A stretch of 32,930 bases of DNA from a virus (lineage: Duplodnaviria > Heunggongvirae > Uroviricota > Caudoviricetes), in IMG/VR virus record IMGVR_UViG_2690316161_000021, positions 1 to 32,930 of that record; one strand, 5' to 3'. Of the stretch, positions 4,279 through 15,364 are shown piece after piece. How positions within the stretch are numbered: position 1 is the first letter of the stretch; each line of letters starts with the position of its first letter. The notes beneath the pieces are model-generated. The model was not told the origin of the DNA. It saw nothing but the letters and a program-made list of their open reading frames with translations, and did not search any database. Made by a program: the position numbers and the translations under genes.

Positions 4279-4288
4279 CAGGCGCTTT

Positions 4289-4576
4289 ATGACCAAAGAC
4301 CATGCACAAGGTGTATTTATCCGTTTTATTGATTTTCGCGGTGAACTGTTATTACGTGCATCCGCTATTGACGGAGTGACTCCGGCGGGTAAAAACGGAA
4401 CCGACGAAGCCACTTACGTTTATCTGAACGGCACGCGACTGCTTGTGGAACTTCCGTACCAGACCGTACGAGAAATCATTAGCGAAGCTGAAAAGGCACG
4501 CCAGGTTAATGCCGATGAACCCTATATCGAAATTATTTGTATGGATTCAGAAGCTGAAATACAGAAAGCAGATTAA
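4289..4576 (+). CDS. Hypothetical early protein
   Basis: 96 aa from the ATG at 4289 (MTKDHAQGVF...); the longer 4175 start would overlap the previous gene in another frame. Confidence 0.5.
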   Translation: MTKDHAQGVFIRFIDFRGELLLRASAIDGVTPAGKNGTDEATYVYLNGTRLLVELPYQTVREIISEAEKARQVNADEPYIEIICMDSEAEIQKAD

Positions 4577-4587
4577 AGGGCGTTGTG

Positions 4588-4830
4588 ATGGGCAAAGAAT
4601 ATAAAACTCTCATTAACAAAGCACTTGAGCGTTTTTATTTTCGCTTAAGTGCATCAGGCGCTCATGCTGAACGTGCGGCCCGTGACTCATTGACCAGAGC
4701 AATCCGAAGTCTGTATGACGTGGCTTTTTACGCTGATGATCTGGATGCACTTAACGAACTTTCCGAGCTGATCTGTGCCGCAGAATGCGGGGAACATATT
4801 GAACCGTATAAGCTGGGAAATATCGCATGA
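4588..4830 (+). CDS. Hypothetical early protein
   Basis: 80-aa ORF with GTG-ATG start and AAAGGG upstream; its stop overlaps the next start (ATGA). Confidence 0.45.
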   Translation: MGKEYKTLINKALERFYFRLSASGAHAERAARDSLTRAIRSLYDVAFYADDLDALNELSELICAAECGEHIEPYKLGNIA

Positions 4831-4940
4831 GTATATTTATCTCATGGCTTGTTCTGATTATTTCGGTGGTCTGCGCCATTGGGATTATGCGAATTATTAA
4901 TTCAGTGAAAAAGATCGAGCGTTTTTTCTCTGATGAATAA
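4827..4940 (+). CDS. Small hydrophobic peptide (37 aa, single predicted TM)
   Basis: MSIFISWLVLIISVVCAIGIMRIINSVKKIERFFSDE; ATGA overlap with the upstream gene; absent from the ORF track because it is under 60 aa. Confidence 0.35.
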   Translation: MSIFISWLVLIISVVCAIGIMRIINSVKKIERFFSDE

Positions 4941-6860: not shown

Positions 6861-7250
6861 ATGATTGACGCTCATGACTTCACAAGATGGGTGCGCACAC
6901 AGGACACCCGTCTGGCTCCCGTTCTTCAGGGATTATTTGATCTCTACATCCGTGGTCGTGACAACAGAGCACGCACCACAAAACCGGAGAATGCAGACAC
7001 CCTTTATTTCACAGTAGACGACTGCTACCGCGTGGACTTCACACCACACGGGCTGGCGTTGCACTGCCTGACACCACACGGAGAATCACTGCTGGCGTAT
7101 TACGACTCCCCGGCCTCCGTATTTGCGGCAATGCTGGCGCATCGCACTGCTGGCGGGTGTGCCTCGCTGAGTGAATACACCGCTGAATTTAACCGCCTTT
7201 CTGCCCTCTTCTCGCAGGAGTGGCAGCGCGTGACGGGATACCAGCCATGA
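6861..7250 (+). CDS. Hypothetical early protein
   Basis: 129-aa ORF immediately upstream of gene A; its stop overlaps the A start. Confidence 0.45.
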   Translation: MIDAHDFTRWVRTQDTRLAPVLQGLFDLYIRGRDNRARTTKPENADTLYFTVDDCYRVDFTPHGLALHCLTPHGESLLAYYDSPASVFAAMLAHRTAGGCASLSEYTAEFNRLSALFSQEWQRVTGYQP

Positions 7251-10093
7251 ATGAGTTTGCATGGAGCTGGAATGAACCACGGCCAGCCATTGATCCGGCC
7301 AGATTTACGGAGCACAGGCAGGAAACTGAAACCGACCTGCAACGCGCCATCCGTTACTACCTTGAGGCAGACAAAAAGGCTCTGGAAGAACAGGAAGCGA
7401 AGGAGGAAGCCTTTTTCGCACAATCCACCGTGGGTAAAAAACTCATGGCATCCCTTGAGGAAGCCGGACAGCGTGAAAAGCTGGCACAAAGCATCATCAG
7501 CAAGCGTCAGGCAACAGAACAAGACCCGGTGGCCCGTGCTTTTGCCACACTGAAGGTGCTTCCCGTTTATCTGCGTGAACCTCTGAGCCGCCACCTCTCT
7601 TTCCTGCGCAAAAAACAGGAAGCCGATCGCCAGAAAGGCAAAAAGAGCTGGCAGGCTGAACGCTACGCGCGCGGAACCCTGCGCAAAATATTCGAACGCC
7701 TGGACCGCACCGACCACCGCTGGCTGACACCGGGTTATCGCTCCCTTGCCGGACGCGAACGCCTGGATGATTTGCTTTACCTGCCGCAGCTCAACAAGCA
7801 CCAGATACAGACGCTGGCCACCATGACGGCGGCGATGTTCAGCAGCACCTTCGAAAAACTCTGCGATGGCTTTGGCGCGACCGATGGTGAGCTGACCATG
7901 GATGTAACGCTGAAGGCGTATCAGATGCTGGCCCGCATGGCGTTACACCTGCACGCCATGCCTCCACATTATGACGCACTGACAACAGACAAAGACCGGA
8001 GGAACGAACCGGACACGGAGCTGCTGCCGGGCGCAATCCTTCGCCTGACCTGTGCGGAATGGTGGAAACGCAAACTGTGGCTGTTACGTTGCGAGTGGCG
8101 GGAAGAACAACTCCGCGCCGCCTGTCTGGTTTCCAGAAAAACATCACCCTATCTGAGCCAGGACGCGTTAAGCGAGTTTCGCGCACAGCGCGAGAAAACA
8201 CGCGATTTCCTGAAAAGTTTCATGCTGGAAAATGAAGACGGGTTCACGATTGATCTCGAGACGGTGTATTACGCGGGAGTAAGTAACCCGGTTCACCGTA
8301 AGGCAGAAATGATGGCCACCATGAAGGGGCTGGAACTTCTGGCCGAAGCCCGTGGCGACAGAGCGGTGTTTCTGACTGTCACCTGCCCGTCAAAATACCA
8401 CGCAACAACGGAGAACGGTCATCCGAATCCCAAATGGAACGGGGCCACTATGCGCGACTCCAGCGATTACCTGGTTAACACGTTTTTTGCGGCGGTCCGC
8501 AAAAAACTGAACCGCGACGGCCTGCGCTGGTATGGCATCCGCACGGTGGAGCCTCACCATGACGGCACTGTGCACTGGCATATGATGGTCTTTGCACATC
8601 CGGACGAGATTGAAACCATCGTGTCCCACGTCTGCGATATTGCCATTCAGGAAGACCGCCACGAGCTGGGCGATGACATAACTCCGCGTTTTAAGGCGGA
8701 GTACGTCGACGGCTCAAAAGGCACGCCAACCAGCTACATCGCCACCTACATCGGAAAGAACCTGGACAGCCGCGCCGTGGATGGCATCGACCCGAAAACG
8801 GGCAAGCCACGCGTTGACCACGAAACAGGTAAATCAATGGCCGAGAGCGTGGAGCGCGCCATCGGCTGGGCGCGCCTTCACCGGGTCCGTCAGTTCCAGT
8901 TCTTTGGCATCCCCTCCCGTCAGGTGTGGCGTGAACTGCGCCGCCTTGCCAGCCAGATGGCACGCAATCCGGAAGGCCCGCAACGGCTGAAGGATGACGC
9001 AATGGACGCGGTACTCGCTGCCGCTGATGCCGGATGTTTTGCCACCTACATTGAGAAACAGGGTGGCGTACTTGTTCCACGCAAAGACTACCTGATTCGC
9101 ACCGCCTACGACCTCGCAGATGAGCTGAACGATTACGGTGAACAGAGCGTACAGATTTACGGGATCTGGTCGCCGCTCATTGGGGAGTCTTCCCGCGTAT
9201 GCACGCATCCGGATAACTGGAAGCTGGTAAGACGCAAACCGGAAGCGGAAGACAGCGCCCGCGAAAATGGTTTTGACCTTCAGGGCGGCCCTGCCGCCCC
9301 TTGGACTCGGACTCGTGGCAATAACTGTCCCCGTGTACAGGAAACAGGCAACAACGGGACAGAACAGCCGGAAGAACGGCCAGCACCGTGGCCGCAGCTT
9401 CCTGACGGCGTTGAAGTAAATGAATGGATGCGCTCACTGAAACGGCACGAACGCCGGGCGCTGATGCGTTCGCTTCGTGACAAACAGGCAAAAAACAGCA
9501 GCGATGAAATGCAGAACTGGACACAGAGCCGCAAACAGCAGCGGCCTTTGCCTGATAACCACGAGTTACTCGCTAAAGAATGGCGGGAGTCTGCTGAATC
9601 TCTCGGCCTGCATATCGGTGAACAACAGATGCAGCACCTGTTACGGGGCGGCAGTCTGTACGTTGACGGCAGCATCATTGCACCGCAGGGATTTGAAATT
9701 GTACGCAAACCGGATACCCGCCCGGACAGCCGAATCACGCAGCTCTGGCAGCGTCTGAGCCGTAATCATGGCGTAAGCAGCACGGAGATCCGCCATAACC
9801 CGGTCGCCAGCTATCTGGCACAGCTGGGGGCATCAGACCCTGAAGCCGCCGCACGCCTGGCATCCACACTTCAGCAGGACCAGAACACCATGAAAACACC
9901 CGTTACCGTGCTTTCTGACATGCTGCGCGCCATCCGCGACGCAGAGCACGCACAGAGAATCAGTGAAACCACTGAACGCGCCAGCCGCAAAGCAGACCTG
10001 CTGCGGGGTGGCCTGACCAGTGGAAACAAAAAACAGACAGAAACGGGACTCACGAATCCCGTAAATGAGCAAAAAACGCGCAGCGATATATGA
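7247..10093 (+). CDS. A: Replication initiation endonuclease, P2 gpA family (rolling circle)
   Basis: About 950 aa with an HUH-type motif (HHDGTVHWHMMVF) and a tyrosine-containing region (YIATYIGKN) typical of P2 A-type initiators. The start could be 7220 or 7247; the C-terminal roughly 250 aa looks like an extension. Confidence 0.85.
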   Translation: MNEFAWSWNEPRPAIDPARFTEHRQETETDLQRAIRYYLEADKKALEEQEAKEEAFFAQSTVGKKLMASLEEAGQREKLAQSIISKRQATEQDPVARAFATLKVLPVYLREPLSRHLSFLRKKQEADRQKGKKSWQAERYARGTLRKIFERLDRTDHRWLTPGYRSLAGRERLDDLLYLPQLNKHQIQTLATMTAAMFSSTFEKLCDGFGATDGELTMDVTLKAYQMLARMALHLHAMPPHYDALTTDKDRRNEPDTELLPGAILRLTCAEWWKRKLWLLRCEWREEQLRAACLVSRKTSPYLSQDALSEFRAQREKTRDFLKSFMLENEDGFTIDLETVYYAGVSNPVHRKAEMMATMKGLELLAEARGDRAVFLTVTCPSKYHATTENGHPNPKWNGATMRDSSDYLVNTFFAAVRKKLNRDGLRWYGIRTVEPHHDGTVHWHMMVFAHPDEIETIVSHVCDIAIQEDRHELGDDITPRFKAEYVDGSKGTPTSYIATYIGKNLDSRAVDGIDPKTGKPRVDHETGKSMAESVERAIGWARLHRVRQFQFFGIPSRQVWRELRRLASQMARNPEGPQRLKDDAMDAVLAAADAGCFATYIEKQGGVLVPRKDYLIRTAYDLADELNDYGEQSVQIYGIWSPLIGESSRVCTHPDNWKLVRRKPEAEDSARENGFDLQGGPAAPWTRTRGNNCPRVQETGNNGTEQPEERPAPWPQLPDGVEVNEWMRSLKRHERRALMRSLRDKQAKNSSDEMQNWTQSRKQQRPLPDNHELLAKEWRESAESLGLHIGEQQMQHLLRGGSLYVDGSIIAPQGFEIVRKPDTRPDSRITQLWQRLSRNHGVSSTEIRHNPVASYLAQLGASDPEAAARLASTLQQDQNTMKTPVTVLSDMLRAIRDAEHAQRISETTERASRKADLLRGGLTSGNKKQTETGLTNPVNEQKTRSDI

Positions 10094-10138
10094 GGCGCGC
10101 ACAAAACAGGCAAAAACGGGATTTCAGAATCCCGTAAA
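10030..10138. repeat. Two near-identical hairpin-containing repeats straddling the gene A stop
   Basis: AAACGGGACTCACGAATCCCGTAAA at 10041-10065 and AAACGGGATTTCAGAATCCCGTAAA at 10114-10138, each with a 6-bp inverted repeat ACGGGA/TCCCGT; both are preceded by AAAACAG-CA-AAA. Confidence 0.7.
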
Positions 10139-10169
10139 CGATTAATTAATCAACATAAGGAAAACCGAC

Positions 10170-11129
10170 ATGAAAATTTACATCGACGACGGCTCCACCA
10201 ACATCAAGCTGGCATGGACTGAGAACGGCGAACGCCGCAACGCCATCAGCCCGAACAGCTTCAAGTCGGAATGGTCTGCGCCGTTCGGTGGCTCGCAGCC
10301 TGCTAACTACATGCTTGATGGCGTGCGCTATGGTTTTGATCCGGTCAGCGATCGCTTTGTCCAGACGACCGACACGCAATACCAGTACAGCGATGTGAAT
10401 GTCATTGCCATTCATCACGCGCTGGTCAAATCAGACATCACGCCACAGGAAGTGGATGTGGTTGTTACCCTGCCACTGAGCGAATATTTCGACACAAACG
10501 CACAGCCGGACATGGCCAACATCAACCGCAAAAAAGCGAACGTCATGCGCCCGGTGGAGTACCAGAACGGCGAAGCATTCACTATCCGTAACGTACGGGT
10601 TATGCCTGAATCCATTCCGGCTGGCTTTAAAGCACTGGCTGACATGAGTCCGTTTGAATCCCTGCTGATTGTGGATTTGGGCGGAACCACGCTGGATGTG
10701 GCAAAGGTTCAGGGGCAACTGGCAGGTATCAGCCAGGTGTTTTGCGATCCACACGTAGGCGTTTCTCTTATGGCCGATGCCGTACTGTCGGTGATGGCCA
10801 CTAACGGTATGCGCACCAGTCACCACATCGCCAATACCATTATCGAACATCGCCATAATGAAGCCTGGCTGCGCCAGCACATCCACAATGACGCGCATTA
10901 CGCCAGCCTGATGGCGGTTATTCGTGAAAAGGAAGAAACACTGAAACAACGCGTGATCCGCGCGCTGGCGGTTTTTTCGGGTTACGGGCGGGTGATGGTT
11001 GTCGGTGGCGGGGCGGAGATTGTGGCACCCGCTATCCGCGAAGCCTGCGGAGTTAATGCGACTTTCATCGCGGACGGGGTGCCACAGTTTGCTCTGGTTA
11101 ATGGGCTGTACGCAATGGACAAGGAGTAA
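10170..11129 (+). CDS. parM: ParM/StbA-like actin-type segregation ATPase
   Basis: 319 aa with actin-fold motifs IDDGSTNIKL, DLGGTTLD and VVGGGAE. From memory it is collinear with plasmid R1 ParM (YSDVNV, ERKKAN, VMPESIPAG); not verified by search. Confidence 0.8.
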   Translation: MKIYIDDGSTNIKLAWTENGERRNAISPNSFKSEWSAPFGGSQPANYMLDGVRYGFDPVSDRFVQTTDTQYQYSDVNVIAIHHALVKSDITPQEVDVVVTLPLSEYFDTNAQPDMANINRKKANVMRPVEYQNGEAFTIRNVRVMPESIPAGFKALADMSPFESLLIVDLGGTTLDVAKVQGQLAGISQVFCDPHVGVSLMADAVLSVMATNGMRTSHHIANTIIEHRHNEAWLRQHIHNDAHYASLMAVIREKEETLKQRVIRALAVFSGYGRVMVVGGGAEIVAPAIREACGVNATFIADGVPQFALVNGLYAMDKE

Positions 11130-11133
11130 ACCA

Positions 11134-11445
11134 ATGACGACACCAACCAGACGGATAAGTTTCTATCTGAAGCCCGCCGCCGTCAAGAACGAAGGAGAAG
11201 CATGCGCCTGGCTGGACAGCCTTACACCAGAAGCCCGCAAAAGCGGCCAACGCGTGGCTTTTCTGGCCGGGCTGGCACTTCTGAAGACGAATCCGGCAGA
11301 GGCTTACCGACTGGCCGCATGGGCTGATGATGAGATGTTACCTGTGACACAAATCAGCTCAAAAAAGTTTGAAGCACAGTCTGCACCAGTGGCTAAGATA
11401 ACCAGCCAGATGGCTGGGAATATCCGGGCGTTATTTCCTGAGTAA
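11134..11445 (+). CDS. parR: ParR/StbB-like small DNA-binding partner
   Basis: 103 aa starting 4 nt after the parM stop with AAGGAG RBS; N-terminal RRISFYLKP and LAGLAL resemble R1 ParR as I recall it, and the C-terminus ends IRALFPE. Confidence 0.6.
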   Translation: MTTPTRRISFYLKPAAVKNEGEACAWLDSLTPEARKSGQRVAFLAGLALLKTNPAEAYRLAAWADDEMLPVTQISSKKFEAQSAPVAKITSQMAGNIRALFPE

Positions 11446-11573
11446 AAGCATCTGCGCGAAAAATGCTCACGTTTATAGAGACAGTATCATTCCATTTGGC
11501 ACACTTACTTCAATAATCGATCTGTTAAACAAATAGATTGTCTATTATCTATCGATTAAAACGATCAATTATC

Positions 11574-11601
11574 TTGACAGTAATGTGCCTTTTTGTAAGA
11601 T
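11574..11601 (+). promoter_or_regulatory. Candidate sigma70 promoter for the hotspot moron gene
   Basis: TTGACA (11574-11579), 16-bp spacer, TAAGAT (11596-11601) with TG one base upstream (extended -10). Confidence 0.45.
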
Positions 11602-11735
11602 CGTTCGCATTGTGAGCGACAAGATAATTGCGCGGCATTGTCCATGCAAAACGCCCCAATAGCAGCAACTATTGGGGCGTAAAACTCGGTCGGACTCACT
11701 TAACCTGATATGCGTGCCTTCCGAAGTAAATCAAA

Positions 11736-11804
11736 ATGTGCGTCGTATATTTTATTGCTTACACGCACCTCTGTAAAGGCACGCATATTTTTCCTATGAG
11801 GTAA
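11736..11804 (+). CDS. Possible 22-aa leader peptide (MCVVYFIAYTHLCKGTHIFPMR)
   Basis: Short ORF ending 5 nt before the GTG start of the 89-aa gene and covering its RBS; it sits inside an inverted repeat. Speculative. Confidence 0.2.
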   Translation: MCVVYFIAYTHLCKGTHIFPMR

Positions 11805-11809
11805 ATAAA

Positions 11810-12079
11810 GTGCGGGCTAAAACAGGTATTTGCAAGAACCCTCATCGTTATAATCCAACATTTCTGTCTCTCCCTGAATATCAAGGACAAGAAGGTCGGC
11901 ACAAATGCGCTGCCTGTGCTTTTGAGCTAGGCATAAAAGATGCGCTTGAAGGACGCGCTATGGCTCAGAATGATTTAGTTTTAGCTAACATTCCGTTTAG
12001 CCAGGCTGGAACTGTAAGGCACAGAGATGCCTATGAAGCATATGTTCGTGGTTGGCGATTAATAAACAGCAACAATTGA
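11810..12079 (+). CDS. Hypothetical 89-aa protein (single CxxC, basic) in the A-to-cos cargo hotspot
   Basis: GTG start with GAGG RBS 8 nt upstream; followed by an intrinsic terminator; embedded in AT-rich DNA. Confidence 0.5.
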   Translation: MRAKTGICKNPHRYNPTFLSLPEYQGQEGRHKCAACAFELGIKDALEGRAMAQNDLVLANIPFSQAGTVRHRDAYEAYVRGWRLINSNN

Positions 12080-12087
12080 TACTTTTG

Positions 12088-12112
12088 AAGCGCCGATAAG
12101 GCGCTTTTTTTG
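12088..12112 (+). terminator. Intrinsic terminator after the 89-aa moron gene
   Basis: Stem AGCGCC/GGCGCT with GATAA loop followed by an 8-T run. Confidence 0.7.
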
Positions 12113-12566
12113 TTTGCACGATAGTGCACAAGTTTGCACAATTTTTTTGAACGACTTTTTGTACTTCCGGCCCGCGTGGTGGCTGGATCCGTCAAGGATC
12201 CGTACGTGCACAAAAAAACGCGTTTTTTCTGCGCGCAGGTGACGGGGGAACAGCCCGCGTTTCAGGGGGGTAAATAGCGTTCCCTTAACGATGTCGCAGC
12301 GACACGACAGAATGGCCGTATTTCTCACGCTGAGCGTGAAAAATACGTGAGGGATTCTGGTTTGATGGGGTGAAAGGTAAGGCCGTCAAAATCGCACTGA
12401 GGCGGCGAGAACATGCAGTCAGCGCAGTGGGATTGCGTAAGAATCTGACCGTCGATGATGGCAATAAGCAGGAAAGCGTCGTGAAATTATCTGACTGATA
12501 CAGGAGCTGGAGAGTCGGGGCATAAATTTTTTATGCCCCGGCGAAGCAGCAGACAAGCGAAGCGCG
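12113..12566. other. Packaging region upstream of portal gene Q; probable cos site
   Basis: Noncoding interval between the hotspot and Q, where cos lies in P2-family genomes. Contains GTTTGCAC and GGATCCGT direct repeats, the palindrome AAAAAACGCGTTTTTT, and GACGGGGGAACAGC (around 12241-12254), which resembles the recalled P2/186 cohesive-end motif GGCG.GGCGGGGAAAGCA. Confidence 0.4.
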
Positions 12567-13613
12567 TCAGGATGTGGGCTGGGTATCTAACAGTGCGTAA
12601 GGGTTAAAGCGGATCACCTCTTCGCCAAGCCAGTCATTGATGTGCTTCATGGCCTCCATGACGGGCATCAGCTCGTTAATTGCGTAAACCCGCGCGGCCT
12701 TCTCCACATCACCAAACGCACTTTTTTCGCCCGGCATCGCCCCCATCAGTTGCGGTGGAACACGGTGCGCAGCCAGCACATCATCACGGGATGCCGCCTT
12801 AACATTCATGAACTCATCTTTTGCGGTGATCTGCTGGAACGGCAAAATTTGCACCCCCTCTTTGCCCCCGTTGGGCGCATGGATGAGCACGTTTTTAAAC
12901 GCACCACCACCACGCGCACCCTGTAACGTTTCTTTCAGGGAGTCCATGCTTTCGCGGTTTACCTGCGCTGCACCGATATAGATGATGCACCCGGCGTGGG
13001 ATCCATTGTCGTAATACAGTTTTCTGAACATGTCCGCCGAATGAGACAGGCTGGCCGAGAGTAATGCGCCAAGATATTCCGGCATGCCGTAAATTTCCTG
13101 GTTAATGTCCGGATTCATCAGGTGGCACACTTTGCCAGGGCGAAACTGAAACGCATCCTTGCCATCCTGAACATACCACCATGATTCAAGATCGCTTCCG
13201 CGTCGCATGTATTTCGCCAGGGCGTGCCGTAATTTAAGCGGTTCGCCGAGCATATTGCTTCGAAGCTCAAGAAATGCGTTACCGAACACAAACCAGTCCA
13301 GCGCCAGCGCCGAGAAATCCTGCCGGGAAAGCAGCGGGTGCGGAATATAGCAACCGAGCAATACATTGCGCTTAAAGTAAAGCGCAGACTGATGCCAGGA
13401 CGTTTGCCGGGCAGCTCTTGCCAGACCGTACCAGTCCACCGGGGTTTCATACCACCGCCCGTTATCAGCACAGTACATATTGTCCAGCAAATCATGCCCG
13501 GTCAGGCGATAAGGACCATCAAATGTGAATGCACTGAGCGACGATTCTTTCCTGAGCGCATCAGCGAGATCAATGCGTGAACTCATGCGCACTTTTTTAT
13601 TTTTTCTGCTCAT
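12567..13613 (-). CDS. Q: Portal protein (P2 gpQ-like)
   Basis: 348 aa, first gene left of cos on the minus strand and overlapping the P stop, as in P2. Confidence 0.8.
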   Translation of the reverse strand: MSRKNKKVRMSSRIDLADALRKESSLSAFTFDGPYRLTGHDLLDNMYCADNGRWYETPVDWYGLARAARQTSWHQSALYFKRNVLLGCYIPHPLLSRQDFSALALDWFVFGNAFLELRSNMLGEPLKLRHALAKYMRRGSDLESWWYVQDGKDAFQFRPGKVCHLMNPDINQEIYGMPEYLGALLSASLSHSADMFRKLYYDNGSHAGCIIYIGAAQVNRESMDSLKETLQGARGGGAFKNVLIHAPNGGKEGVQILPFQQITAKDEFMNVKAASRDDVLAAHRVPPQLMGAMPGEKSAFGDVEKAARVYAINELMPVMEAMKHINDWLGEEVIRFNPYALLDTQPTS

Positions 13614-15364
13614 CAGAACTCCATAACCGTAAAACGCTCGTTTTCCCCTTCGCCGCCAATTGGTTCGTTAATGACAGCAAGCATGGTTGCCCACGCAAGG
13701 TCGCCGTGGCTGATCCCCCTCGCACGGTCCGTTTCGTAAGTGATAAAACCGCCCGGTGTTTTCACCTTACGCACGGCGTTAAAGGCCGCGACCAGCTCGC
13801 GTTCGGCGCGATCGTATTCCCACCGCCCGGCACGCATTATTTGCAGCATTTTCAGTACCAGCGACCGTTTTGATGACAGCGTGAAGGTGTACGGAATAGC
13901 AGCAGGGAAAAACCGTTTCACTATCTGATAAACAGCCTCCCCGTTCCCGCCCGTCACATCAATGCCGATGTGTTCCACGTTGTAGCGACACGTGAACTCT
14001 TCAATGACTCTGGCCTGTTCTTCAAACTCCAGCCCCTGAACGCGTCGCGTCTCCACCGTTCGAAAACGGCCACCAGGAACAGCCGGAGGAACCACCACGG
14101 ACACAGCGCCGCTGTCGCCGTTGCCACTGCTGCCGTTTGCGTCATACCCAATCCATACCGGACGATTCCCCATCGGGCGGGGAGCAAAAGGTTTCCAGTC
14201 TTTCCAGTCGTCGTATCCGTCAACACCGCAGCCAATCAGGATATTCAGGTTAAATGCCGATTCCCCTTCGCGGACAAACTCACACATATAGAGATTGCGG
14301 AACTCGTCTTCGGTGTTTTCATCACGAATTTCGTCAATATCGGTGTGTTTCCAGCCGTGATTAACCACATCTTCCAGCGTGACAATTTGCCGCCACGTCC
14401 GGTCAGGGCAGATAAGCCCGTTATGCAGCGTTTTCCAGTCCACAGAAAAACGCTGGCGTTTATGCGTGGCCTTTTTCTCGTTCCAGCGGTCGCCGTTCCA
14501 GTAGGCGTATGCCTCGTGCGTTTCGGTGGATGGCGTGGAGAAGTAGGTGCGCCGCAGTCCGCTGAGGGTTGCCATAGCGCCAGCCACCTTGCGCAGTTCA
14601 GCAAAGCGACTGACCCAGAAAAATTCATCAAAATAAAAATTGCCCGTATAGGACTGTGCCGACGCAGCAGAAGTGCCGAGAAAATGCAGCTCTGCACCGT
14701 TGGAGAGGATGATTTTATCGCCCCCTTTCAGCTCCACATCAACTTCAGCCGCGGCCTTCTGAATAATGCTTTTGAACTGGAACGCCTGACGACGCGACGC
14801 AGACAAAAAAATCTGGTTACGCTGGTAAGGTTGCGCCACATCGTCACGCAGCGCCATCAGCAGAGCTTCCTGTGCAAAATACCAGGTCGCCCCAATCTGT
14901 CGGGATTTCAGGATCATCCTGTTACGTATCCCGGCTTCCTTGCAAAGTGTCAGGGAGTCAAACCAGCCCCGCTGATGCCACTCCAGCCTGCTGATGATTT
15001 TTTCCCGCAGTGCGGCAATCTGTTCCGGCGTGAAATGATTTTTGAGTTTTTTCGCCCGGCCTTTCTTTCCTGCGGCCATCACATCCGGCTGGCCATCATG
15101 CAGCTTTTTAAGCTGCCGGGTCAGCAGGTCTATTTCCTTAAAGTCACCGCCTGTTTTATTCTGTTTTTCAGTAAGCTGGATGAGGCGCGCATCGATGGAC
15201 TGCGTGACACGCTGCACGGGTGGCGTTTCATCCCACTGGTCGCGTTTTTTCCACGCATAAACCGTGTTCGGGTTTATTCCCATCAGACGTGATATTTCTG
15301 CGGGCGGATAACCCTGCCAGTAAAGTTGCCGCGCACGCTGGCGCACAAAAGCGTCCTGAATCAT
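13613..15364 (-). CDS. P: Terminase large (ATPase) subunit (P2 gpP-like)
   Basis: 583 aa, in the P2 position upstream of Q and divergent from O. Confidence 0.85.
   Translation of the reverse strand: MIQDAFVRQRARQLYWQGYPPAEISRLMGINPNTVYAWKKRDQWDETPPVQRVTQSIDARLIQLTEKQNKTGGDFKEIDLLTRQLKKLHDGQPDVMAAGKKGRAKKLKNHFTPEQIAALREKIISRLEWHQRGWFDSLTLCKEAGIRNRMILKSRQIGATWYFAQEALLMALRDDVAQPYQRNQIFLSASRRQAFQFKSIIQKAAAEVDVELKGGDKIILSNGAELHFLGTSAASAQSYTGNFYFDEFFWVSRFAELRKVAGAMATLSGLRRTYFSTPSTETHEAYAYWNGDRWNEKKATHKRQRFSVDWKTLHNGLICPDRTWRQIVTLEDVVNHGWKHTDIDEIRDENTEDEFRNLYMCEFVREGESAFNLNILIGCGVDGYDDWKDWKPFAPRPMGNRPVWIGYDANGSSGNGDSGAVSVVVPPAVPGGRFRTVETRRVQGLEFEEQARVIEEFTCRYNVEHIGIDVTGGNGEAVYQIVKRFFPAAIPYTFTLSSKRSLVLKMLQIMRAGRWEYDRAERELVAAFNAVRKVKTPGGFITYETDRARGISHGDLAWATMLAVINEPIGGEGENERFTVMEF

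Follow-up and report, generated by a model that had tools for sequence, protein, structure and literature searches.

The window analysed here (32,930 nt; positions 1–32,930 of the IMG/VR virus record IMGVR_UViG_2690316161_000021) is a P2-like Escherichia coli prophage. The prophage carries a 667-bp cargo cassette, or moron, between the stop codon of parR and the conserved cos-side sequence. The cassette encodes a protein of 89 amino acids (aa) on the plus strand and a predicted cis-antisense small RNA (sRNA) on the minus strand. The genes of the replication protein gpA and the partition proteins ParM and ParR precede the cassette, and the portal and terminase genes follow on the opposite strand (Table 1). 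Positions 11446–12112 are 99% identical to Escherichia phage 520873 (Peduoviridae, Xuanwuvirus) and were found in 173 of 5426 complete E. coli genomes, in a chromosomal location every time; a search of plasmid DNA returned no match. An initial annotation of the window had described this block as an AT-rich, self-contained moron with a promoter, a structured leader, a possible leader peptide, an 89-aa protein and a terminator.

The boundaries of the cargo were determined by searching window positions 10900–12566 against E. coli genomes. Both flanks (the parR side, ending at 11445, and the cos side, starting at ∼12112–12116) were recovered in ∼1430 genomes, and the intervening 667 bp in only 166 genomes of the same search. 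In the genomes that lack the cargo, the alignment ends at 11445 and restarts at ∼12112–12116. Given these sharp breakpoints, the coordinates of the initial annotation enclose exactly the cargo of a variable slot, in which ead/Ea22-like, DUF3800 and other genes are found as alternative cargos. The block is AT-rich as described, with a GC content of 0.40–0.45 versus 0.54–0.58 in the flanks. Homologous cassettes occupy other classic moron sites: the lambda rex position downstream of cI in the P22-like Salmonella phage BIS08P22, and, in Providencia phage PSTCR7lys, the opposite strand of the interval that separates the Q antiterminator gene from the lysis genes. The cassette thus displays several features of a moron in the sense of Hendrix and Juhala (its own predicted promoter, a factor-independent terminator, a variable insertion site and a deviant base composition). 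Related prophages either carry or lack it between these flanks, and its reading as a mobile, self-contained moron is supported. The nearest diverged cassette, in the same P2 slot of E. coli ECL27829 (locus L003; 63% identical), contains an unannotated small gene (L003 positions 4281–4559), which is followed by an additional 95-aa open reading frame (ORF; 4626–4913) and then by an Ogr/Delta-like gene, indicating that the slot can carry stacked cargos.

On the plus strand, the predicted σ70-type promoter P(+) would initiate the mRNA near position 11608 and would drive a unit that consists of a long leader, the 89-aa ORF and an intrinsic terminator. The leader is structured, as originally proposed, with a fold (z = −3.87) whose stability was reached by none of 200 shuffled sequences. 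The terminator is likewise confirmed, with its stem followed by a T-run. Promoter-like matches taken alone are no more frequent than expected by chance (two found versus 1.8 ± 1.4 in shuffles). The near-consensus promoter of the initial annotation is backed by its equivalents in 24 diverged homologous cassettes (types A–D), in which TTGAnn-16/17-TAnnAT is located at a fixed distance of 166–178 nt upstream of a TGTAAA motif; in the window, which carries an insertion of ∼27 nt, the distance is 198 nt. The −10 element had also been called TG-extended, and this detail does not hold, as the TG abuts the hexamer and the promoter scan flags no canonical extension. A perfect 11-nt inverted repeat (CAATTATCTTG at 11566–11576 and CAAGATAATTG at 11620–11630) flanks P(+); it was rejected as a functional element, not being conserved in L003, and is probably incidental or type-specific.

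A second predicted σ70-type promoter, P(−), which was overlooked in the initial annotation, faces P(+) from within the leader. P(−) is located ∼35 nt upstream of the ribosome-binding site of the 89-aa ORF, points away from it and would initiate near position 11742. Transcription from this start to a GC-rich hairpin with a UUUU tail would produce an sRNA of ∼95 nt that is fully complementary to the middle of the mRNA leader and has a predicted folding energy of −35.6 kcal/mol (z = −3.9). The hairpin had been annotated as a leader structure with an 11-bp stem at ∼11655–11682. It is present, with a stem of 12 bp and slightly shifted arms, and the sequence 3′ of it reads TTTTG on the minus strand versus TAAAAC on the plus strand. 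Because the U-tail lies on the minus strand and the conserved P(−) lies upstream, the hairpin is better read as the terminator of an antisense sRNA than as mere leader structure.

The conservation of P(−) was analysed in 160 related loci from genomes and viral contigs, which were reduced to 87 non-redundant upstream regions. Of the 87 regions, 33 contain TGTAAA (TTTACA on the minus strand) at a distance of 36–56 nt upstream of a conserved Ile7 codon, versus a background expectation of ∼0.02 per locus. Thirty of these 33 regions are stand-alone prophage cassettes, which represent at least five sequence types (P2-like, lambdoid, Providencia/Proteus, Gilliamella and Citrobacter/Klebsiella/Serratia). 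In an alignment of 25 diverged prophage cassettes, TTTACA-N17-TAnnnT is invariant on the minus strand. The invariant columns comprise TGTAAAG and the TAnnnT bases exactly 17 nt away, while the bases between them vary, and the invariant positions are those that are critical for σ70. A strict composite search for the promoter and, 30–220 nt further on, a same-strand hairpin with a T-tail retrieved 10 of the 87 regions, compared with 0.2 in block shuffles and none in a mirror-image control. When each sequence was folded separately, a GC-rich hairpin that ends 61–105 nt from the predicted sRNA start was found at ∼22 of 30 loci, for which sRNAs of 65–105 nt are predicted. The hairpins at the equivalent position have 29 distinct sequences in the 30 loci, mostly with ΔG values of −15 to −25 kcal/mol, and end in tails of three to six U; a T-rich tail is observed on the minus strand in every cassette type. 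We conclude that a conserved, predicted cis-antisense sRNA gene is part of the cassette. In the Citrobacter, Buttiauxella and Klebsiella loci L031, L037 and L049, the predicted antisense sRNA has terminator tails of T6–T7, and this type also encodes a DUF4062 protein (∼330 aa; no PADLOC match) 46–108 nt downstream of the small gene.

Table 1. Features of the cargo cassette and neighbouring genes (window coordinates).
Feature	Position	Strand	Remarks
Replication protein gpA	7220–10093		Phage_GPA domain
ParM	10170–11129
ParR/StbB-like protein	11134–11445
Cargo cassette (moron)	11446–12112	+	667 bp; between parR stop codon and conserved cos-side sequence
GATC sites around P(+)	11519–11522; 11563–11566; 11599–11602		Three sites, read from the sequence
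P(+), predicted σ70-type promoter	11574–11601	+	TTGACA (11574–11579)-16-TAAGAT (11596–11601); 10/12 matches
Structured 5′ untranslated region	11608–11809	+	∼200 nt; minimum free energy −71.4 kcal/mol
Predicted cis-antisense sRNA	11646–11742	−	∼95 nt; P(−) start to hairpin and UUUU; fully complementary to mRNA leader
GC-rich hairpin, read as sRNA terminator	11651–11680	−	12-bp stem (11651–11662 / 11669–11680), 6-nt loop
13-nt perfect inverted repeat	11708–11720 / 11776–11788	+	Long mRNA-leader stem bracketing P(−)
22-codon ORF, MCVVYFIAYTHLCKGTHIFPMR	11736–11804	+	Probably not a gene; no Shine-Dalgarno sequence, not conserved
P(−), predicted antisense σ70-type promoter	11749–11777	−	TTTACA (11777–11772)-17-TAAAAT (11754–11749); 10/12 matches
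89-aa protein	11810–12079	+	GTG start; GAGG at 11798–11801 (8 nt upstream); phrog_3941 member
Intrinsic mRNA terminator	12087–12115	+	8-bp stem (12087–12107; 5 GC pairs) and T7 run
Portal	12567–13613	opposite to cassette
Terminase	13613–15364	opposite to cassette

The predicted sRNA was not assigned to a known RNA family. An Rfam search of the window with a permissive E-value gave best matches of 22 bits versus gathering thresholds of 43–45, and a search of 14 related loci at gathering scores found no sRNA family; the hairpin matches the terminators of two antisense RNA families, ctRNA and sar, weakly and below threshold. When the predicted sRNAs were aligned with MAFFT, RNAalifold yielded no consensus structure because the hairpins were out of register, and per-sequence hairpin detection was substituted for it. 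The missing consensus, the short U-tails and the chance density of single promoter-like matches are what would be expected if the cassette were an ordinary moron without antisense RNA, in which the hairpin and the 13-nt inverted repeat are mRNA-stabilising or translational structures and TTTACA-N17-TAnnnT is a plus-strand RNA or DNA element. This explanation is quite improbable, however, given that the invariant minus-strand positions are exactly the σ70-critical ones, with a fixed 17-nt spacing and varying bases between them, that minus-strand T-rich tails occur in all cassette types (with T6–T7 runs in one) and that the mirror control retrieved 0 of 87 regions.

The 13-nt inverted repeat in the leader is perfect, as initially annotated (by the author's estimate, ∼0.015 such repeats with arms within 400 nt are expected in 2.6 kb), and its left arm lies inside the region covered by the predicted sRNA. 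The repeat sequence is not conserved in L003 or in a further cassette, L132. Lambdoid-type cassettes contain another stem (CTTGAGATCTC...GAGATTAnCTCAAG) at the same place, which brackets P(−) likewise. The 22-codon ORF inside the repeat does stop 5 nt before the GTG codon of the 89-aa ORF; its proposed role as a leader peptide was rejected, as the ORF at the equivalent place has only six codons in L003, where it is unrelated, and in L132 and three codons in the lambdoid type. The ORF is thus confined to the window type and does not correspond to the leader ORF (mok) of hok/sok. Around the translation start, the Shine-Dalgarno core is paired by a local hairpin in 25 of 26 relatives, often together with the AUG codon (z = −2 to −5), and the hairpin arms vary by locus (CCTCA/TGAGG, CCTAT/ATAGG, GCACCTT/AAGGTGC and CCCTG/CAGGG).

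Three GATC sites are distributed around P(+). The second is located 11 nt upstream of the −35 element, and the third overlaps the −10 element TAAGAT. A GATC site 10–11 nt upstream of the P(+) −35 element is found in all 24 type A–D cassettes, a site at or directly past the −10 element in 16 of the 24, and sites in the P(−) spacer or start region in 22 of the 24. Taken together, the comparison shows two predicted σ70-type promoters in a face-to-face arrangement, with leader, 89-aa ORF and terminator forming the putative P(+) unit. It also shows that this predicted architecture, including the GATC site upstream of the P(+) −35 element, is conserved in at least four diverged cassette types, which belong to P2-like, lambdoid and other prophages of Enterobacterales and Gilliamella.

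The AT-rich block with recurring CGAT/GATC motifs at 11510–11570 was also considered as the parC centromere of the adjacent ParMR system, which would place it outside the cassette. The block lies directly behind parR, and conservation between the window and L003 is highest at 11500–11680. Nevertheless, the same promoter block accompanies the small gene in lambdoid and other phages without a nearby parMR and is absent from ∼1260 E. coli genomes that have parR with another cargo, and a better parC candidate exists upstream of parM (10027–10141). The parC assignment was rejected as extremely improbable. The candidate upstream of parM consists of two 42-nt direct repeats (10027–10068 and 10100–10141; 81% identical), each with a 20-nt palindrome (ACGGGAnnnnnGAATCCCGT). 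One repeat is contained in the gpA 3′ end and the other shortly precedes parM; the repeats are plausibly the parC centromere or the operator of the ParMR module. This plasmid-partition module (StbA/StbB; 10170–11445) is chromosomal in E. coli at 2106 of 2109 places. The presence of ParMR in an integrated phage is odd and hints at an episomal phase.

The 89-aa protein starts with GTG and contains a CxxC motif at residues 33–36, as initially annotated. It matches phrog_3941, a family listed as of unknown function, over nearly its entire length (E = 9.1e-49; residues 4–89 on profile positions 1–86 of 86). The earlier statement that the protein could not be placed in a known family is correct insofar as no named family was found; phrog_3941 is nonetheless a large family, which is strongly linked to GATC restriction-modification (R-M) systems. 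An exhaustive HMMER search identified 173 representatives at 50% identity, and a profile search identified ∼1600 clusters at 90% identity; the phyla represented include Proteobacteria, Bacteroidota, Firmicutes, Spirochaetes and Myxococcota. Residues C8, H12, C33 and C36 are invariant or nearly so and plausibly form a zinc site. Two repeats, LPxxQGGxGRHKCxxCAYxxG and LPxSQAGTVRHKxxxxAYxxGY, are found in the family, with the motifs LPxxQGxxGRHKCxxCA and IPxSQAGTVRHR; in short form, these are two SQAGxxRHK repeats. The protein is probably built of two ∼40-residue units, whose exposed loops end in R-H-K/R. In longer fusion proteins, the Cys and His residues are kept in both repeats, which gives the stand-alone protein the appearance of a tandemly duplicated unit with a second copy that has lost the putative metal site. 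The protein is hydrophilic, with 12 Lys/Arg and 8 Asp/Glu residues.

The remote-homology and structure analyses that the initial annotation had proposed thus produced the phrog_3941 match and a confident AlphaFold2 model (predicted local distance difference test score, 88.8; predicted template modelling score, 0.82), and neither a named family nor a structural neighbour. Foldseek found no neighbour of the model in BFVD or the PDB, and a sequence-profile search of the PDB with the protein retrieved nothing. Pfam and NCBIfam scans of the protein and the small leader ORFs gave nothing usable. Only noise was obtained in Pfam at E ≤ 1, no HTH_3-like helix-turn-helix (HTH) was found in the 89-aa protein, and the protein had no Pfam or NCBIfam match to the Ogr/Delta zinc-finger family of late activators. 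A literature search on this protein, the sRNA, small proteins in DpnII operons and type I toxin–antitoxin (TA) systems with zinc proteins found nothing relevant. In approximately half of the sampled E. coli RefSeq genomes that carry the 89-aa gene, including enterohaemorrhagic serotypes O157:H7 and O111, PGAP makes no coding-sequence call for it. The ORF is intact in three uncalled copies that were checked, and five copies differ by two synonymous changes and N85H. ORF decay as a sign of toxicity was accordingly rejected.

The genomic neighbourhood of the family was analysed by clustering the neighbours at 80 species-representative loci. A D12-class Dam-like methyltransferase gene recurs in the neighbourhood of the small gene at 39 of the 80 loci, an N6_N4 methyltransferase gene at 34 and a DpnII restriction endonuclease gene (PF04556; E = 7.5e-112) at 31. 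At 31–39 of the 80 loci, the small gene thus resides inside DpnII-type (GATC) operons, usually in the order first methyltransferase, small gene, restriction endonuclease and second methyltransferase (M-small-R-M2) with gaps of 0–20 nt; otherwise it follows M2 or is encoded between R and M2 on the other strand. The last arrangement is exemplified by loci from Treponema and other Spirochaetes (L016, L017, L039, L052 and L053), where the small gene is antisense between the DpnII and second methyltransferase genes, a convergent organisation that could itself be regulatory. At further loci, the partners of the small gene are a D12 methyltransferase and a DUF6996/6997/7226 protein, the latter assigned by PADLOC as a type II restriction endonuclease. 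A further ∼20 of the 80 loci carry stand-alone copies and belong to Enterobacterales, Gilliamella or Pasteurellaceae. In these lineages Dam methylates GATC, as is established for Enterobacterales. From the R-M operons and the stand-alone copies in Dam lineages, it follows that roughly three-quarters of the 80 loci are in a GATC-methylating context.

The domain also occurs in fusion proteins. One or two copies are fused to HNH, HNH_2 and NOV_C (PD-(D/E)xK) nucleases, and DndB-like and WYL proteins carry the domain at their C-termini. A family of 927 proteins comprises the NOV_C fusions, which were located within a DpnII cassette in three of three look-ups. In Flavobacteriia and other Bacteroidota (L177–L180), the gene order is Dam methyltransferase, DpnII, a ∼160-aa protein, a DndB/DpdB-like protein, a NOV_C nuclease with two copies of the domain and N6_N4 methyltransferase, with the last two genes swapped in some cassettes. 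The two-copy NOV_C nuclease corresponds to the PADLOC candidate PDC-S36. These cassettes suggest that the DpnII systems of Bacteroidota possess additional undescribed components. From the placement in DpnII operons and the nuclease fusions, we infer that the small protein is a DNA-binding module that acts at GATC sites.

The operon position of the small gene could instead reflect descent from an R-M controller. In this explanation, the window protein would be an orphan regulator, lacking an HTH but analogous to the C proteins of GATC R-M systems, that regulates its own expression or interferes with R-M systems by anti-restriction or exclusion of R-M elements. The small gene lies upstream of and co-oriented with the restriction endonuclease gene in relatives, in many operons directly so (M-small-R-M2), although not in the window. 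The conserved GATC-containing sites in the cassette promoters and the fusions with DndB-like and WYL regulators also fit a regulator. On the other hand, the protein has neither an HTH nor any similarity to C proteins. The gap of 13–20 nt between the M gene and the small gene leaves no space for a C-box promoter, and elsewhere the small gene follows M2 or lies on the opposite strand. Moreover, an anti-DpnII role would be of little use to a lysogen, as Dam-methylated E. coli DNA already resists DpnII-type enzymes. An orphan regulator of this kind is considered improbable.

The predicted architecture of the cassette resembles that of a type I TA locus. In silico, the sRNA is a cis-encoded antisense RNA that overlaps the mRNA at 11646–11742. 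The cassette may thus be a true type I TA or abortive-infection module, with a toxic 89-aa protein and an unstable antisense sRNA as the antitoxin. Toxicity could arise, for example, from coating of GATC sites, which would block replication or transcription, and the toxin would be released on prophage loss or phage attack. The predicted antisense gene within the leader, the sequestered Shine-Dalgarno sequence and start codon in relatives, the weak GTG start of the window copy, the strong terminator and the movement of the cassette as a self-contained unit all agree with such a module. The SymE and RalR toxins are non-membrane exceptions to the rule that type I toxins are short hydrophobic peptides. 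The 89-aa protein, in contrast, is no short hydrophobic peptide; typical type I toxins are hydrophobic membrane peptides of <60 aa. The predicted sRNA has no overlap with the ribosome-binding site. Furthermore, dozens of R-M operons encode this protein in one transcription unit with M and R genes and without sRNA control, which argues against strong intrinsic toxicity. A true type I module therefore appears unlikely, while deserving serious consideration.

The reading that is tentatively preferred, at somewhat less than an even chance, is that the cassette is a mobile, tightly regulated moron for a GATC-linked nucleic-acid-binding protein that is controlled by a predicted antisense sRNA in a type I TA-like architecture. 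In this mechanism, the sRNA would restrain expression of the 89-aa protein. Restraint would likely be exerted through an sRNA–mRNA duplex in the 5′ untranslated region, which would lead to RNase III cleavage or refolding, or through promoter collision or interference between P(+) and P(−). In most relatives, the local hairpin that sequesters the Shine-Dalgarno sequence would provide a second brake. The protein would be a small zinc-stabilised module of two ∼40-residue repeats that binds DNA at GATC sites and possibly reads their methylation state. It could, in addition, autoregulate by binding GATC sites in the promoter region of its own gene. In the lysogen, its role would most likely be that of a tightly throttled accessory factor for exclusion or defence, or for type I TA-like addiction, acting on DNA in Dam-methylating hosts.

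Several observations weigh against this reading of the cassette. P(+), P(−) and the sRNA are predictions from sequence, and the short U-tails (UUUUG in the window and UUUCCC in many relatives) make the efficiency of sRNA termination uncertain. The sRNA does not overlap the ribosome-binding site, and its complementarity to the translation-initiation region is not above that of shuffled controls. The Shine-Dalgarno hairpin of the window copy is weak (−3.8 kcal/mol; z = 0). In type A cassettes, including the window, the P(−) region is devoid of GATC, and GATC enrichment upstream of the family genes in general is just ∼2-fold. The size and hydrophilicity of the 89-aa protein are unlike those of typical type I toxins. 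No similarity to a DNA-binding domain was found in the fold or sequence, and DNA binding and GATC specificity are assigned through guilt by association. PADLOC 2.0 detected no defence model for the 89-aa protein or the small ORFs; its matches were only to a fusion partner or neighbours (PDC-S36, REase_II and PDC-S19).

A more far-reaching version of the preferred reading was also weighed, in which the protein has a zinc-dependent, new GATC- or methylation-reader fold that serves as an accessory or targeting module for DpnII-type R-M systems and nuclease fusions and that was captured by temperate phages of Dam-methylating enterobacteria, under antisense sRNA control, as a methylation-based self/non-self exclusion or addiction device. 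In its entirety this version is doubtful, and there is a substantial chance for its core, in which the protein represents a DNA reader of a new, GATC-directed type. Antisense-regulated prophage morons are an already known kind of element. The protein fold and family, the R-M linkage and the sRNA family appear to be undescribed so far.

These results bring to light a large family (∼1600 clusters at 90% identity in many phyla) without a Pfam family or structural neighbour. Stand-alone and nuclease-fused members are repeatedly and tightly associated with GATC R-M cassettes, which points to a so far unrecognised component of one of the best-known R-M families. The predicted sRNAs would constitute a new prophage cis-antisense family that is absent from Rfam, and with GATC sites fixed in position in the cassette promoters, a connection of moron expression with Dam methylation can be tested directly. 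If the protein does read GATC methylation, it would offer a compact new tool domain.

Additional features were observed in the neighbourhood of the cassette. The gpA protein has 957 residues, of which only 194–518 form the Phage_GPA domain, and its C-terminal extension of ∼430 residues has no family assignment. On the cos side, a near-perfect 15-nt palindrome is located at 12317–12347. A perfect 11-bp hairpin (CGGGGCATAAA/TTTATGCCCCG; 12516–12540, within 12508–12561) adjoins the end of the portal gene, and the 12508–12561 region gives a sub-threshold Rfam match to 'gyrA RNA' (22 bits versus 45).

The cassette can be compared with five kinds of known systems. It is similar to the prophage morons in the P2 tin/old slot in that a low-GC promoter–gene–terminator unit lies near cos, flanked by conserved genes, and the site harbours alternative cargos. 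It differs from them in having its own predicted antisense regulator and no match to a PADLOC defence family. With hok/sok and other type I TA loci (SymE/SymR; RalR/RalA of the rac prophage), the cassette shares a long structured leader before a small-protein gene, a cis-encoded antisense sRNA of ∼65–100 nt (here predicted) from a promoter within the leader, a sequestered ribosome-binding site (here in relatives) and a compact, prophage-mobile organisation. Unlike the type I toxins, the protein encoded here has 89 residues, is hydrophilic and contains putative zinc ligands, and most members of its family are encoded in R-M operons without an sRNA. Unlike in hok/sok, the predicted sRNA covers no conserved ribosome-binding site or leader ORF, and thus there is no mok equivalent.

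The family resembles the C proteins of type II R-M systems, as a protein of ∼85 residues is encoded directly upstream of the restriction gene in many operons and orphan copies reside on mobile elements. In contrast to C proteins, it has no HTH; it is similar to them in neither sequence nor fold, and its gene takes different places in the operons (ahead of R, behind M2 or on the other strand). With the GATC-methylation readers SeqA and the winged-helix domain of DpnI, the family has in common a genomic link to GATC methylation systems, and the cassette carries GATC at fixed places in its own promoters; fusion to nucleases is shared with DpnI-like enzymes. It is not similar to SeqA or the DpnI winged-helix domain in sequence or predicted fold, and GATC binding is here only putative. 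Finally, the predicted sRNA corresponds to lambda OOP, P22 sar and the plasmid ctRNAs in its short length and antisense orientation, its terminal GC-rich hairpin and its convergence with a phage mRNA. It has no homology to these RNAs at Rfam gathering scores, and its predicted target is a moron gene, unlike the lysis–lysogeny regulators that are targeted by phage cis-antisense RNAs.

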